NCBI GenBank assembly: GCA_016208965.1
Contig: JACQXB010000037.1
Coordinates: 110 to 64,109, forward strand
Source: Nitrospirota bacterium
GTDB lineage: Bacteria > Nitrospirota > Thermodesulfovibrionia > UBA6902 > DSMQ01
Length of the DNA stretch: 64,000 nucleotides
Direction: 5' to 3'
Shown here: positions 37,825 to 41,636 of the stretch, piece by piece
Layout of the letters: the number at the start of each line of letters is the position of its first letter
Position numbering within the stretch: the stretch's first letter is position 1
Notes under the pieces: generated by a model
Database searches by the model: none
What the model saw: the letters and a program-made list of their open reading frames with translations, nothing else
What the model was told of the DNA's origin: nothing
Translations under genes and position numbers: made by a program

Positions 37825-37936
37825 GCAGTGAACAGTGAATAGTAAAAGATTATAAATAATTTTGGCTAAATACTATCTACTAATGACTATTCACTGTCTT
37901 TGTTACTATTCACTATTAACTGTTCATTGATAACTG
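37825..37936. repeat. Inverted AGTGAAC/AGTGAAT word arrays upstream of tRNA-Ser(GCU)
   Basis: cagtgaacagtgaatagta ... tactattcactattaactgttcattg, separated by ~60 nt. Confidence 0.6.
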
Positions 37937-37944
37937 TCGTTAAT

Positions 37945-38037
37945 GGAGAGGTGGCCGAGCTGGTCGAAGGCAGCCGCCTGCTAAGCGGTTGTGGGGGTAA
38001 AACTTCACCCAGGGTTCGAATCCCTGCCTCTCCGCCA
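37945..38037 (+). tRNA. tRNA-Ser (anticodon GCU), long variable arm, CCA encoded
   Basis: GGAGAGG acceptor, anticodon arm GCCGC-CTGCTAA-GCGGT, T-arm CAGGG-TTCGAAT-CCCTG. Confidence 0.93.
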
Positions 38038-38061
38038 TATACCATACGGTATATGGCTCCG

Positions 38062-38134
38062 CCAGTTAAAAGACAGTGAAGAGTGAAGAGTTAAAAGTTT
38101 TTATTCCTTAACTCTTAACTCATAACTTATAATT
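38062..38134. terminator. Hairpin of AGTTAAA/GAAGAGT words downstream of tRNA-Ser(GCU)
   Basis: cagttaaaagacagtgaagagtgaagagttaaaag ttttta ttccttaactcttaactcataactt. Confidence 0.5.
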
Positions 38135-38162
38135 CTAAAATATAAAATTCAGGAGGAGAGAA

Positions 38163-38714
38163 ATGAAAAGATTTTTGAAAGTATCATCGGTTGTAATAGT
38201 AATATTGTTATCAATTGCGGCTTGCAAGAAAAAGGAGGAACAACCAATTCCCAAGGCACCCATGAGGTCAGGTCCGATAATGGAAGCCCCTGCTGTAGCA
38301 CCCGGGCATGAGACAACGGGTACAAAGGTCACATTTCAGATAGTTGTACCTCAGGATGTAAAAGATACATGGTCTGCTGTTAAGTTAATAGTAGAGGACA
38401 AAAAATTAAACAAAACACAGGAATTTATTGTCAATCTCGGTAGTGAGCTAAGGATTCCTGATTCAAACTTAAGGATTAAGATAGGTAATTTTCTTCCGGA
38501 TTTTAGAATGGACGGGCAAATTATCACTTCAGTATCTAATATGCCGAATAATCCATCTGTTGGGGTAGTAATTTATGAAGATGGCAAACAGATATTTCCG
38601 GAGATGGGAAAAGAGTGGGGATGGTTATGGGCCCGCAAGGAACTTCAGGCTATGCACCCTTTCATGCACCCGAAATATGGAATAACACTTAAAGAAGGGG
38701 TTTCAAAGAAATAA
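38163..38714 (+). CDS. Putative lipoprotein, unknown function
   Basis: Lipobox-like LLSIAAC at residues 15-21. 183 aa, no recognised domain. Confidence 0.6.
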   Translation: MKRFLKVSSVVIVILLSIAACKKKEEQPIPKAPMRSGPIMEAPAVAPGHETTGTKVTFQIVVPQDVKDTWSAVKLIVEDKKLNKTQEFIVNLGSELRIPDSNLRIKIGNFLPDFRMDGQIITSVSNMPNNPSVGVVIYEDGKQIFPEMGKEWGWLWARKELQAMHPFMHPKYGITLKEGVSKK

Positions 38715-38789
38715 AACCATTAATGGGTCTACGGGATAAAGGCTTTTTCAGGATGGCTAACAAACATTGTCACATTTTTTATAAAAAAT

Positions 38790-38866
38790 GCGCCCATAGC
38801 TCAAATGGATAGAGCGCCGGACTACGAATCCGTAGGTTGGGGGTTCGACTCCCTCTGGGCGCGCCA
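38790..38866 (+). tRNA. tRNA-Arg (anticodon ACG), CCA encoded
   Basis: GCGCCCA acceptor, anticodon arm CCGGA-CTACGAA-TCCGT, T-arm GGGGG-TTCGACT-CCCTC. Confidence 0.93.
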
Positions 38867-38895
38867 CATTAGTTCATAGTTCATAGTTTTTAGTT

Positions 38896-39372
38896 ATGAC
38901 AATGGATGAATACTTCATGCGACTTGCCCTCGGAGAGGCAGAAGCATCCTTTAAAGAAGGTGAGGTGCCTGTGGGCGCAGTCCTTGTAAAAGATAATGTT
39001 GTTATAGCCGCTGCTCATAATATGCGAGAGGCAAAGAACGACCCAGCCGCACACGCAGAGTTGATAGCACTCCAAGAAGGTGCTTCTAAAATAAAGAGTT
39101 GGCGGTTAATAGATGCGACACTTTATGTAACAAAAGAGCCTTGCCCAATGTGTGCAGGTGCAATGGTAAATGCAAGGCTCAAGAGACTTGTTTATGGCTG
39201 CAAGGATAAAAAAGGAGGAGCGGTCGATAGTCTCTACAACCTTCTGTCAGATAAGAGACTTAACCATCAGGTTGAAGTTATATCAGGAATTTTAGAGAGT
39301 GAATGTGCAGAGATATTGAAGAGGTTTTTTGAGACGCGAAGGAATAGCTTGGAGAGATGCCAGAGTGGTTGA
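38896..39372 (+). CDS. tadA: tRNA adenosine(34) deaminase TadA
   Basis: HAELIAL (HAE) and PCPMCAGA (PCxxC) zinc motifs. The 3' end overlaps tRNA-Ser(CGA) by 22 nt. Confidence 0.92.
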   Translation: MTMDEYFMRLALGEAEASFKEGEVPVGAVLVKDNVVIAAAHNMREAKNDPAAHAELIALQEGASKIKSWRLIDATLYVTKEPCPMCAGAMVNARLKRLVYGCKDKKGGAVDSLYNLLSDKRLNHQVEVISGILESECAEILKRFFETRRNSLERCQSG

Positions 39373-39435: not shown

Positions 39436-39440
39436 TTAAT

Positions 39441-39532
39441 GGAGAGGTGTCCGAGTGGCCGAAGGAGCACGACTGGAAATCGTGTATCCCGAGAGATCGG
39501 GATCGAGGGTTCAAATCCCTCCCTCTCCGCCA
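39441..39532 (+). tRNA. tRNA-Ser (anticodon GGA), CCA encoded
   Basis: GGAGAGG acceptor, anticodon arm CACGA-CTGGAAA-TCGTG, long variable arm, T-arm GAGGG-TTCAAAT-CCCTC. Confidence 0.92.
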
Positions 39533-39539
39533 TAAAAAA

Positions 39540-39637
39540 CAGTTAAAAGTTGAAAGTTATAAGTTTAAAGTTGTAAGGTAAGAAGTGTCGTAAATGTTTT
39601 TCATTTTTCCCTTTTCACTTTTAACTTTAAACTTTTG
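39540..39637. repeat. Long imperfect hairpin of AAGTNNN words between tRNA-Ser(GGA) and ffs
   Basis: agttaaaagttgaaagttataagtttaaagttgtaagg ... cccttttcacttttaactttaaactttt. Confidence 0.7.
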
Positions 39638-39643
39638 GAATAC

Positions 39644-39753
39644 GTCAGGCTCTTGGGCCCTGTGCGACAGGATGCTGTGAAATCCACCAGGTTCGGAAGA
39701 AAGCAACGGTAAGCAGTTCACCTGGGTGCCTCAGGAACACCTGAGGGCCTGAC
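39644..39753 (+). ncRNA. ffs: Signal recognition particle RNA (small bacterial 4.5S type)
   Basis: Closing helix gtcaggc...gcctgac. Conserved domain IV core caccaggttcGGAAgaaagcaacggtaagcag (compare E. coli ACCAGGUCCGGAAGGAAGCAGC). Position upstream of dnaX matches Bacillus. Confidence 0.8.
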
Positions 39754-39756
39754 TTT

Positions 39757-39859
39757 AAAAAAATGTAAAATGCAAAAATCAAAATGCAAAATTATGGAAG
39801 AAAAAATTTTAAAAAATAAACTCATTAATTTTTCATTTTTCATTTTTCATTTTGAATTT
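39757..39859. repeat. Imperfect hairpin of AAAATGC/AAAATGA words upstream of dnaX
   Basis: aaatgtaaaatgcaaaaatcaaaatgcaaaatt ... aatttttcatttttcatttttcattttgaattt. Confidence 0.7.
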
Positions 39860-39864
39860 ATCAT

Positions 39865-41499
39865 ATGAGTTACCTTGTTCTTGCAAGAAAGTGGAGACCT
39901 CAATTTTTTGACGAGTTGATCGGACAGGAGGCTGTTGTTCGCATCCTCAGAAATGCCATCATAAGCGAAAAGGTTGTGCATGCATATCTGTTCTCGGGTC
40001 CAAAGGGTGTAGGGAAAACATCGGCTGCAAGGATTCTGGCAAAGGCGCTTAATTGTTCTAAGGGACCTACTTACGAGCCCTGTGGTGAGTGCCCAAATTG
40101 CAGGTCAATAACCGATGGCTCCTCAATAGATGTCCTTGAGATTGATGGTGCATCTAATAATAAAGTTGAGGATATAAGAGACCTGATAGAGGTTGTAAAA
40201 TATGCACCCTCAACATGCAAATATAAGATATACATTATTGATGAAGTCCATATGTTAACTAAAGAGGCATTTAATGCACTGTTAAAAACCCTGGAGGAGC
40301 CCCCTTCGCATGTCATATTTGTCTTTGCTACAACCGAACCCAAAAAATTACCTGCTACAATCCTATCGCGCTGTCAGCATCATGCCTTCCGAAAGATTCC
40401 AAAAATCAGGTTAAAAGAGCGCCTTCTAAAGATCTCACGGACTGAAAATATAAATATAAAAGACACCGCTTTAGAGATGATAGCAAGGTCTGCTGATGGA
40501 AGCATGAGGGATGCACTAACCATACTTGATCAGGCATCTTCCTTTAGTGATAATATCAGTGAAAGTGACCTGCAGACACTTCTCGGCTTACCCGAGGCAG
40601 ACATAATATTAAACTTATCAGAGGCAATCTTAGAGGGGGATATATCTAAAGACCTTTTCATAATAAAAGACATTGTTGAGAGAGGTTATGATCTTAGGCC
40701 AATGGTTAAGGAACTTGTAGAGCATTTTAGAAATCTGGCTGTTGTAAAAATTGCCAATGACCCTAAAGAGCTTCTTGAATTCACAGAATCTGAGATAAAG
40801 AATCTCCGTCAGCAGGCATCAAAGGTAAGTATAGAAGAGCTCTCTGTTCTTATAACCCAACTCCTTAAGCTTGAGACTGAAGTAAGGACAGCCTCAAATC
40901 CAAGATATGCTTTTGAACTTGGTCTTTTACGCACATCCTTTGTTAAGGGAATGACCTCTATTAGCAGCATTTTAGAGAGAATAGGAAATCTTGAGCATGG
41001 GAATTCTCCTCGGGATACCAAAAGCCCACAACCACCAGCTCAACCGACAATCAAACAATCTGAACCTCTCATGACAGAGAGCATCAAATCTCTCCCTGAT
41101 GTAACGGACAAATTCCAAGTAGATGCTGCACAGGAATTATGGCAGAAGGTCATTGAAAAACTTAAACCCGAACACAATCTTCTAACATGCAAACTTGGAG
41201 AGGCACATATAGAAGGCTTTACAAAAACAGACCTTACAATAGGTTTTAACGGGGGTATGTCTGTACTTGCAGATTCTGTCAAAAAAAATTCACATGTAAT
41301 TGAAGACACACTGAAAGAAATCATAGGACAGAAGATAAAACTAAAAGTTGTAACATTACCAAATAAAAATGCAGGGAAAGGACTCAATGAAGTAAAAGAG
41401 TCTATCCTTTCTGACCCTACTGTTAAAAGCGCCCTTGAACTCTTTAATGGTAAGATATTAGAAATTAAACCACTTAAAAGCACAAATGAACACGGTTAA
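39865..41499 (+). CDS. dnaX: DNA polymerase III subunit gamma/tau
   Basis: LARKWRPQFFDELIGQ, GPKGVGKTS, zinc module CGECPNC, IIDEVHML, SRCQ. Confidence 0.95.
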   Translation: MSYLVLARKWRPQFFDELIGQEAVVRILRNAIISEKVVHAYLFSGPKGVGKTSAARILAKALNCSKGPTYEPCGECPNCRSITDGSSIDVLEIDGASNNKVEDIRDLIEVVKYAPSTCKYKIYIIDEVHMLTKEAFNALLKTLEEPPSHVIFVFATTEPKKLPATILSRCQHHAFRKIPKIRLKERLLKISRTENINIKDTALEMIARSADGSMRDALTILDQASSFSDNISESDLQTLLGLPEADIILNLSEAILEGDISKDLFIIKDIVERGYDLRPMVKELVEHFRNLAVVKIANDPKELLEFTESEIKNLRQQASKVSIEELSVLITQLLKLETEVRTASNPRYAFELGLLRTSFVKGMTSISSILERIGNLEHGNSPRDTKSPQPPAQPTIKQSEPLMTESIKSLPDVTDKFQVDAAQELWQKVIEKLKPEHNLLTCKLGEAHIEGFTKTDLTIGFNGGMSVLADSVKKNSHVIEDTLKEIIGQKIKLKVVTLPNKNAGKGLNEVKESILSDPTVKSALELFNGKILEIKPLKSTNEHG

Positions 41500-41636
41500 A
41501 TTCGAAATGCGAAGCACGAAATACGAAACAATTTTAAAATTCTAAATTCAAATTCTTAAAACTTGTTTATTGTTTTGAATTTTGAGTTTTGGTTATTAGG
41601 ATTTGTTTAGAATTTCGAATTTCGATATTCGTATTT
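41499..41636. repeat. ~140-nt imperfect hairpin of TTCGAAAT and TTCAAAT words between dnaX and ybaB
   Basis: attcgaaatgcgaagcacgaaatacgaaac..ttctaaattcaaattcttaaaac ... gttttgaattttgagttttgg..tagaatttcgaatttcgatattcgtattt. Confidence 0.75.

Follow-up and report, generated by a model that had tools for sequence, protein, structure and literature searches.

What are the long, imperfect hairpins that fill the spacers of a compact bacterial gene string, and what might they do? The question is raised by a 64,000-nucleotide stretch of DNA from a Nitrospirota bacterium (GenBank assembly GCA_016208965.1, contig JACQXB010000037.1; the whole stretch is called the window below), in which a tight string of same-strand genes runs from tRNA-Ser (GCT) to recR at 37700-42600 and in which arrays of degenerate 7-nt words are followed by arrays of their reverse complements. 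An earlier note on this DNA had described such hairpins at six loci. Our answer, to which we assign a probability of about 0.55, is that they represent a family of palindromic elements with heptamer arms, similar to the intervening sequences (IVSs) of 23S rRNA, that lie inside transcription units and are not terminators. The metagenome-assembled genome (MAG) comprises 1.67 Mb in 50 contigs (39.5% GC); the nearest DnaX homologues are labelled Nitrospirae or Thermodesulfovibrionia, and the sequence of the window is present in groundwater metagenome runs.

Hairpins of the tRNA, ffs and dnaX region

The proposed architecture, a 5' array of 7-nt words and then an array of complements at a gene boundary, was recovered at five of the six loci (H1, H2, H4, H5 and H6), with arms of 20-36 nt that are 74-90% complementary; the sixth, at 38870-38895, is a single array for which inverted-repeat and folding analysis gave no inverted partner and no fold. 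That every tRNA, ffs and dnaX boundary is flanked in this way was an overstatement: the 75-nt gap before tRNA-Arg is without an array, and two tRNA-Ser genes are just 4 nt apart. The features of the region are as follows; open reading frame is abbreviated ORF, signal recognition particle SRP, and Tandem Repeats Finder TRF.

37163-37732, minus strand: rsmD-like gene (Pfam PF03602), divergent from tRNA-Ser (GCT)
37789-37817, plus strand: promoter-like site TTTACA-17-TAATAT with TG before the -10 element (consensus scan only)
37821-37941: H1, between the rsmD-like gene and tRNA-Ser (GCT) (inverted repeats, TRF period 7)
37945-38037, plus strand: tRNA-Ser (GCT) (ARAGORN, Rfam)
38062-38134: H2 (inverted repeats, TRF, fold z -2.6)
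38163-38714, plus strand: ORF of 183 amino acids without Pfam match, with a lipoprotein-like N terminus as read from the sequence
38790-38866, plus strand: tRNA-Arg (ACG) (ARAGORN, Rfam)
38870-38895, plus strand: TAGTTCA array, 2.7 copies, 100% (TRF), reaching up to the tadA-like start codon
38896-39372, plus strand: tadA-like tRNA adenosine deaminase gene (Pfam PF14437, PF00383)
39350-39436, plus strand: tRNA-Ser (CGA) (ARAGORN, Rfam)
39441-39532, plus strand: tRNA-Ser (GGA) (ARAGORN, Rfam)
39538-39640: H4 (inverted repeats, TRF)
39651-39749, plus strand: ffs, small SRP RNA gene (Rfam RF00169, 52.1 bits)
39757-39864: H5, ending at the dnaX ATG (inverted repeats)
39865-41499, plus strand: dnaX, DNA polymerase III gamma/tau subunit
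41497-41640: H6, beginning on the dnaX stop codon (inverted repeats, fold z -3.9)
41654-41986 and 41983-42576, plus strand: ybaB and recR (Pfam PF02575, PF13662, PF21176)

The arms of H1 lie at 37821-37846 (CAGTGAAC/AGTGAAT words) and 37878-37929 (ATTCACT-type words) and are 83-90% complementary, with a minimum free energy of -24.9 kcal/mol (z -2.2). H2 pairs 38075-38096 (AGTGAAG/AGTTAAA words) with 38099-38132 (CTTAACT words; 77-85% for 38075-38096 / 38099-38127), H4 pairs 39541-39584 (AGTTAAA/AGTTGAA words) with 39598-39636 (TTTTCAC/CTTTAAA words; 75-85% for 39545-39584 / 39604-39636), and H5 pairs 39759-39805 (AAAATGC words) with 39826-39864 (ATTTTTC words; 75-79% for 39761-39805 / 39826-39864). 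H6 has two nested pairs, outer arms at 41497-41531 and 41603-41637 (TCGAAAT/GCGAAGC/ACGAAAT/ACGAAAC words; 74%) and inner arms of AAATTC type at 41536-41556 and 41573-41591 (88% for 41536-41552 / 41574-41590). All six loci are located between tRNA, ffs and protein genes and none inside 23S rRNA; none has an S23p/PF05635 ORF in its loop, and no G3 tracts occur in them.

The flanks of two stable RNA genes are also complementary across the gene. The 3' arm before tRNA-Ser (GCT) and the 5' arm after it (37867-37941 and 38069-38103) are 77% mutually complementary, and the flanks of ffs (39598-39622 and 39760-39784) are 76% mutually complementary; judged from these matches, long-range stems like those around rRNAs could form around each stable RNA as well.

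Abundance and word composition in the genome

Heptamer periodicity is a property of the whole genome: 636 of 1747 TRF rows have period 7, and the self-similarity (autocorrelation) of intergenic DNA peaks at lags 7, 14 and 21. There are 314 intergenic period-7 arrays, against 3-12 in dinucleotide-preserving shuffles of all intergenic segments. Neighbouring arrays (150 nt or less apart) are reverse complements within one mismatch in 55 of 165 cases (33%), versus 3.9% of random array pairs, and show no enrichment for direct, same-strand relatedness. At least 106 inverted pairs were obtained, with medians of 31 nt for the arm, 20 nt for the loop and 88 nt for the span.

The 605 arrays reduce to 171 canonical words, all linked into a single cloud when one mismatch is allowed; the commonest word is found in 26 arrays, and the purine-oriented words consist of 46% A, 22% G, 22% T and 10% C. 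The view that each locus uses a word of its own holds at best in part, for the words form a continuum, a second locus has the arms of H6 again, and the spacers of stable RNA genes share AGTTAA-type words. AGTTAAA-type words make up 52% of the arrays that adjoin stable RNA genes, versus 15% elsewhere (odds ratio 6, p = 2e-6). In a genome-wide comparison, H1 and H2 gave no twins beyond short word matches, and partial twins of H6 and H5 were located at C5:90462, C40:9857 and C39:29739.

Further arrays are recorded here. On contig C50 (5382-6268), a cluster of five tRNA genes (Lys-Arg-His-Arg-Pro) has an AGTTAAN / AACTTTN hairpin in every spacer. In the window, AGCT-centred arrays (TAATAGC, TTAGCTT x11, AATAGCT) stand at each junction of ruvC (3517-4038) and ruvA (4163-4750), within 3445-4789; their arm orientation is ambiguous because AGCT is self-complementary. 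The longest perfect heptamer run of the window, (TCAGCTA) x7.9 at 45313-45367, lies inside an ORF (44532-45683).

Orientation and placement

The purine-rich arm is the 5' arm in 97 of the 106 pairs, and this chirality is independent of gene orientation because an inverted repeat reads alike on both strands. Two ideas on it may be put forward: a purine-rich first arm may avoid exposing pyrimidine-rich nascent RNA, or cleavage may leave a pyrimidine-rich leader before the next gene.

The association of arrays with gene ends, which had been read from a single region, holds throughout the genome. Sixty-eight pairs could be placed in gaps between ORFs or tRNA genes; 63 of these gaps are co-directional, two convergent and three divergent (chi-square p = 0.007 by gap count; about 7-fold per kb). 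At the median, a pair starts 4 nt past the upstream stop codon, ends 15 nt before the next start and covers 79% of the gap. Gaps adjacent to tRNA genes are 3-fold enriched in hairpins (p = 0.0014), and an array lies within 80 nt of 21 of the 33 tRNA/tmRNA genes.

Link to PF05635 genes

The genome contains six loci for the IVS-protein (IVP) family PF05635 above the Pfam cut-off (one of them split) and one weaker match. An IVP of the MAG matches PDB entry 2gsc from Xanthomonas campestris (five chains in the entry) with an E-value of 6e-22. Several of the genes are bracketed by inverted heptamer arrays, among them C37:77888-78202 by AAGTTGC x6 and CTTGAAA, C19:760-1053 by AAATCCT and TTTAGGA, and C5:45186-45500 by GCAATGA arrays.

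Over its whole length, H6 can be aligned with the two flanks of another PF05635 gene, at C5:90534-90833. Its left outer arm agrees with the left flank of that cassette at 32 of 35 positions and has the variant units in identical order (...AAT, ...AGC, ...AAT, ...AAC); its inner AAATTC-type arms and its right arm match the flanks as well. The identical unit order means homology by copying and not independent slippage, and H6 is a gene-less twin of this cassette.

Of 31 related genomes, 30 have IVP genes, with 1-12 copies each. Among 28 IVP genes of the relatives, 11 stand between inverted heptamer arrays, as do three to four of the six in the MAG, versus 22 of 1443 ORFs of the MAG; for the relatives this is an excess of about 26-fold (odds ratio 42, p = 2e-12). 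In the literature that could be searched, no report was found of a general tie between PF05635 genes and heptamer-armed hairpins.

Two IVP loci deserve separate mention. In the window, a PF05635 gene on the minus strand (53178-53487) falls into two overlapping pieces that cover profile positions 1-48 and 47-106, and is probably frameshifted; its neighbour is only an 8-mer repeat (CCCATCTT x2.2), with no heptamer arms. The PF05635 gene at C41:982-1296, with arrays of AGCT words to its left and right, stands between an N-terminal piece of a tyrosine recombinase and a C-terminal catalytic motif (LLGHKHVETTMIYTHV), and seems, from this arrangement, to replace the middle of the recombinase gene.

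Copies inside protein genes

No fewer than 15 pairs are located well inside long ORFs; they keep the reading frame and contain no stop codons. Arm complementarity is 74% in these coding copies versus 79% in spacers. Conserved genes with such copies include the following.

LeuRS: insert of 16 amino acids, compared with six relatives
Tgt: insert of 17 amino acids, compared with the solved structure 10fb
HemC: inserts of 24 and 36 amino acids, compared with the solved structure 1ah5; one of them nests a GC-rich hairpin
YbeY (endoribonuclease, PF02130 match): hairpin of AAGTGAG / ACTTCTT arrays at 11277-11372 of the window, in frame in the ORF 11071-11568

In LeuRS the element replaces an ancestral loop and is not a simple interruption. 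An origin of this insert by growth in situ from the ancestral loop was considered on account of a faint resemblance, and was found unconvincing, as other coding inserts have an identical 3' end (ACTCGTCACTG). The LeuRS gene of relative G011 (L109) has a GC-rich perfect palindrome, GTAGGGGCAATTC ATG AATTGCCCCTAC, in frame in the same surface loop as the LeuRS insert of the MAG, which suggests, as far as sequences can tell, that this loop is a hot spot for hairpin inserts or else tolerates them.

Conservation and turnover among relatives

The gene order tRNA-Ser (GGA)-ffs-dnaX-ybaB is common across the order wherever the compared loci reach, and the tRNA-Arg/tadA part is found in some loci only. 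In the ffs-dnaX spacer, an inverted heptamer pair is present in 8 of 11 loci of relatives (seven distinct sequences, two being identical), and a single array in one more. The words of the relatives at this spacer are related but different (AGTTAAN / CACTNTT, AGTAGTT / CTAACTA), with arms that are complementary in most genomes. In relative G022 the spacer is just 18 nt long, and another relative has unrelated hairpins there.

Turnover was also detected on a shorter time scale, in accordance with the suggestion that the arrays are recombination hot spots. In a close strain, seen only through contigs aligned to the window (X5, X6 and X8), 174 nt around H6 are replaced by 95 other nucleotides that start with AACAAAGTAGCGAGTAGAGAG, and the flanking dnaX and ybaB genes differ at about 5 per 100 bases. 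H4 cannot be aligned in the X5 strain, where 39533 joins to 39644. In the X5-X8 metagenomes, the arms of H6 have about 10 times the summed depth of their own flanks and adjoin several different sequences, some of which resemble the starts of IVP genes; these observations are no more than suggestive. An exact look-up of YbaB gave no record, a homologue search with DnaX gave none between 70% and 100% identity, and no pair of empty and filled sites with clean borders was recovered. Differences in presence or absence at orthologous sites thus comprise the LeuRS, Tgt and HemC inserts, the swap between dnaX and ybaB, and the 18-nt ffs-dnaX spacer of G022.

Similar insertions were found in 23S rRNA of the relatives. 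G011 has an insertion of 110 nt in a helix loop (Rfam LSU position ~283) with arms of TCAGCNN x4 and GCTGANN x4, that helix holds an AGATTTG array in G006, and G015 and G010 have other hairpins there; the heptamer-armed inserts tie this hairpin class to the classical IVSs within the lineage. The hairpin of G010 (L172, 1783-1901) is in the same helix loop, is 119 nt long and GC-rich, and has no heptamer repeats; the region folds with -81 kcal/mol for 150 nt.

Comparison with known repeats

In the earlier note, no nameable feature class was seen for inverted paired arrays. This does not hold, since inverted pairs of heptamer arrays between co-oriented genes have been published for Xanthomonas (PMC4692102) and the stems of 23S IVSs match the design (PMC4990558); heptamer repeats in general have been published repeatedly (PMC4692102, PMC4679880, PMC2700814).

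As in the 23S IVSs of Salmonella, Leptospira and Coxiella, terminal inverted repeats form a long stem, the loop of which may hold a PF05635 gene (PMC4990558). The stems of IVSs are RNase III cut sites, and the Coxiella IVS has tandem heptamers (GACAGAT) at the RNase III site, with a copy number that varies between strains (PMC4990558). H6 adds ends shared on both sides with a PF05635 cassette, and relatives G011 and G006 add the heptamer-armed 23S insertions described above. Unlike 23S IVSs, the loci studied here are in tRNA, SRP RNA and mRNA spacers, are without ORFs and belong to a class with hundreds of copies per genome versus one per rRNA operon; excision by RNase III is known for IVSs, whereas for the present hairpins we only infer it.

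Among the GGGAATC heptamers of Xanthomonas, 70-75 inverted pairs are known from each genome (Rehm et al. 2015, PMC4692102). Like these, the present pairs are convergent, capable of forming stem-loops, placed for the most part between co-oriented ORFs and not far from the upstream one, and vary in length among species while the type is preserved. X. campestris, a species in which GGGAATC pairs were described, also encodes the PF05635 protein 2gsc that is matched by the IVP of the MAG. The Xanthomonas word is a single G-rich one that forms quadruplexes, in contrast to the 171 A-rich words here, and the study of it reported no link to IVP genes, coding inserts or stable RNA genes (PMC4692102).

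The kinship with the STRR heptamers of cyanobacteria that had been pointed out is apt. The STRR/TAACTGA repeats of Beggiatoaceae, Cyanobacteria and Bacteroidetes are likewise abundant intergenic tandem units of 7 nt that often end just before start codons (PMC4679880), and the 3'-arm words at stable-RNA spacers of the MAG and its relatives (TTAACTC, TAACTCA, CTTAACT) are within one mismatch of TAACTGA. TAACTGA-type repeats are direct, with one inverted case noted in a Maribeggiatoa genome (PMC4679880). STRR, TAACTGA and GGGAATC repeats all use one or few fixed words, unlike the 171 here, where moreover the inverted pair is the rule.

Rickettsia palindromic elements (RPEs) and extragenic palindromes of REP/BIME type are small palindromic repeats with a conserved consensus and no transposase; RPEs are also found in frame in conserved protein genes. 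The present hairpins resemble them in general features, as transposase-less palindromes in operon spacers and, like RPEs, as extra surface peptides encoded in frame. Unlike RPE and REP, the stem is here a tandem heptamer array, and the word differs between copies.

Interpretation and alternative explanations

As an IVS-like element family, the hairpins would work as follows. The whole stretch would be read as one precursor of tRNA-Ser, the 183-residue ORF, tRNA-Arg, tadA, two tRNA-Ser, ffs, dnaX, ybaB and recR, which would presumably be co-transcribed. The promoter-like site at 37789-37817 is, as a consensus match and not as functional evidence, a possible start of this transcription unit; its place just upstream of H1 fits one long precursor, and for the genes further down the string the scan gave just one weak promoter-like site, at 39837. 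Each spacer would fold into an imperfect duplex of 25-45 bp, and RNase III, which cuts IVSs and rRNA processing stems and for which a gene is present at C8:70707-71093, would cleave these duplexes and free the stable RNAs and individual mRNAs. We regard RNA processing as the most plausible function that the analysis offers, and cleavage by RNase III itself as a tentative proposal at somewhat less than even odds. At the DNA level, slippage would alter the arms 7 nt at a time, and correction of one arm by the other, or their renewal time and again, would keep them complementary; now and then whole elements would reach new sites by copying or swapping, some of these sites lying in frame in genes.

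Several observations weigh against an IVS-like family. The folding z-scores are modest (-0.9 to -3.9) and the stems only about 79% Watson-Crick paired. Shuffled sequence, which had been named as the control for both periodicity and stems, is set apart clearly by its number of period-7 arrays but poorly by its folding energy; the z-scores are a weak discriminator because shuffled A/T-rich sequence folds too, and periodicity and arm relatedness outperform them as tests. Stem mismatches on the sense strand of co-directional gaps comprise 65 G-U and 64 A-C, i.e. no wobble excess. Upkeep of the stems by selection on the sense transcript was dropped after this count; complementarity would therefore be kept or renewed at the DNA level, or stem from recent origin, rather than from G-U-tolerant selection on RNA. 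For most hairpins, no twin could be detected at another place in the genome, and slippage growth in situ may therefore account for many of them. H1 is located in a divergent gap, outside any operon. No transposase, target-site duplication or other copying machinery turned up, in an analysis without a dedicated test for these. A look for RNA runs that contain the ffs region gave none. There are no rRNA genes in the MAG, and the 23S comparison rests on relatives. Finally, the correlation of IVP copies per Mb with array density is suggestive and weak (rho 0.49, p = 0.03, from 20-kb samples of 20 genomes that are not phylogenetically independent); G013, the sole genome without IVP, has one array in 40 kb, and the sampled pieces of G017 and G024, both with IVP genes, contain no arrays.

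The arrays might instead be pure mutational by-products of 7-nt replication slippage on A/T-rich spacers and small hairpins, with no identity, mobility or function. In many bacteria, no long simple-sequence repeat is commoner than the heptamer (PMC4679880, PMC4692102), and the continuum of words, the scarcity of twins, the flat wobble count and the gradual drift of words at ffs-dnaX among relatives are all in line with slippage. We nevertheless think it unlikely as the full account, for it leaves unexplained why neighbouring arrays are reverse complements, why the purine-rich arm comes first, why H6 and the C5 cassette share the order of their variant units, why arrays are in 26-fold excess around IVP genes, and why complete in-frame hairpins are present in LeuRS, Tgt and HemC and absent from relatives. 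A protein that reads the 7-nt period and thereby controls the translation or stability of an adjacent gene, be it an IVP pentamer or a binder of single-stranded RNA (S1, Csp, CsrA), would make the hairpin secondary. It would suit the pyrimidine-rich 3' arm that ends shortly before the next start (in the case of H5, on the dnaX ATG), the TTAACTN/TAACTNA 3' arms at stable-RNA spacers of relatives, the 6-fold enrichment of AGTTAAA near stable RNA genes and the co-occurrence of arrays with IVP genes, and such binders have been proposed for the TAACTGA-type arrays directly upstream of Beggiatoaceae start codons (PMC4679880). However, 171 words speak against a single sequence-specific binder, arrays upstream of tRNA genes and in ORFs are located where translation control makes no sense, and pairing of the arms would be needless; we give this explanation little credence.

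A role as intrinsic or bidirectional terminators or attenuators at gene ends, one of the functions considered in the earlier note, was rejected and appears very improbable to us. The hairpins do start right past stop codons, are strand-symmetric and have a T-rich 3' arm, but their stems are AT-rich and imperfect, with loops of 20-70 nt and no U tract, and the region 37600-41800 has no terminator-like site at all where 3.6 +/- 1.7 were found in shuffled sequence. Placement argues in the same direction, with 63 of 68 pairs in co-directional strings and two in convergent gaps, and with at least 15 hairpins inside ORFs; a stop after each tRNA, ffs and dnaX would also silence the genes downstream.

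The IVS-like reading can be extended, in a proposal that we consider rather doubtful, to a single unrecognised element without transposase that consists of the PF05635 IVP (an Avd-like four-helix bundle) and the heptamer hairpins. The IVP would recognise the periodic stem and promote its copying or maintenance, the hundreds of gene-less hairpins, those around tRNA, ffs and dnaX and those translated as parts of enzymes among them, would be non-autonomous copies, and the chirality would be a footprint of copying; such an element would unite 23S IVSs, STRR, GGGAATC pairs and TAACTGA repeats.

Other features of the gene string

The 3' end of the tadA-like gene (stop codon at 39372) overlaps the start of tRNA-Ser (CGA) at 39350, and tRNA-Arg (ACG), the usual substrate of TadA, is encoded directly upstream of the tadA-like gene. 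A 24-codon ORF (MEEKILKNKLINFSFFIFHFEFII) at 39794-39867 spans the loop and 3' arm of H5, and its TGA overlaps the dnaX ATG (ATGA); it is without obvious Shine-Dalgarno sequence and may be due to chance.

Significance

To our knowledge, heptanucleotide repeats (STRR, TAACTGA, the GGGAATC repeats of Xanthomonas and the 'global regulator sites' of Geobacter) have been reported piecemeal over 35 years with no agreed origin or function, and we know of no role for the PF05635 family, for which structures have been solved. The present locus adds a twin relationship between a hairpin and an IVP cassette, context-dependent words at stable RNA genes, positional conservation across the order, and 23S copies in relatives. 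The connection between IVPs and hairpins becomes concrete in the shared cassette ends, the 23S copies, the retention at ffs-dnaX and the in-frame tolerance in essential enzymes. For annotation, the hairpins account for the unusual extensions and insertions that conserved genes show in Nitrospirota MAGs. If they are RNase III sites, they would define how this lineage cuts its long precursors of tRNA, SRP RNA and mRNA; if they are selfish, they would give rise to new protein loops and be a major unrecognised shaper of compact genomes, where an occupied spacer is filled to about 79%.

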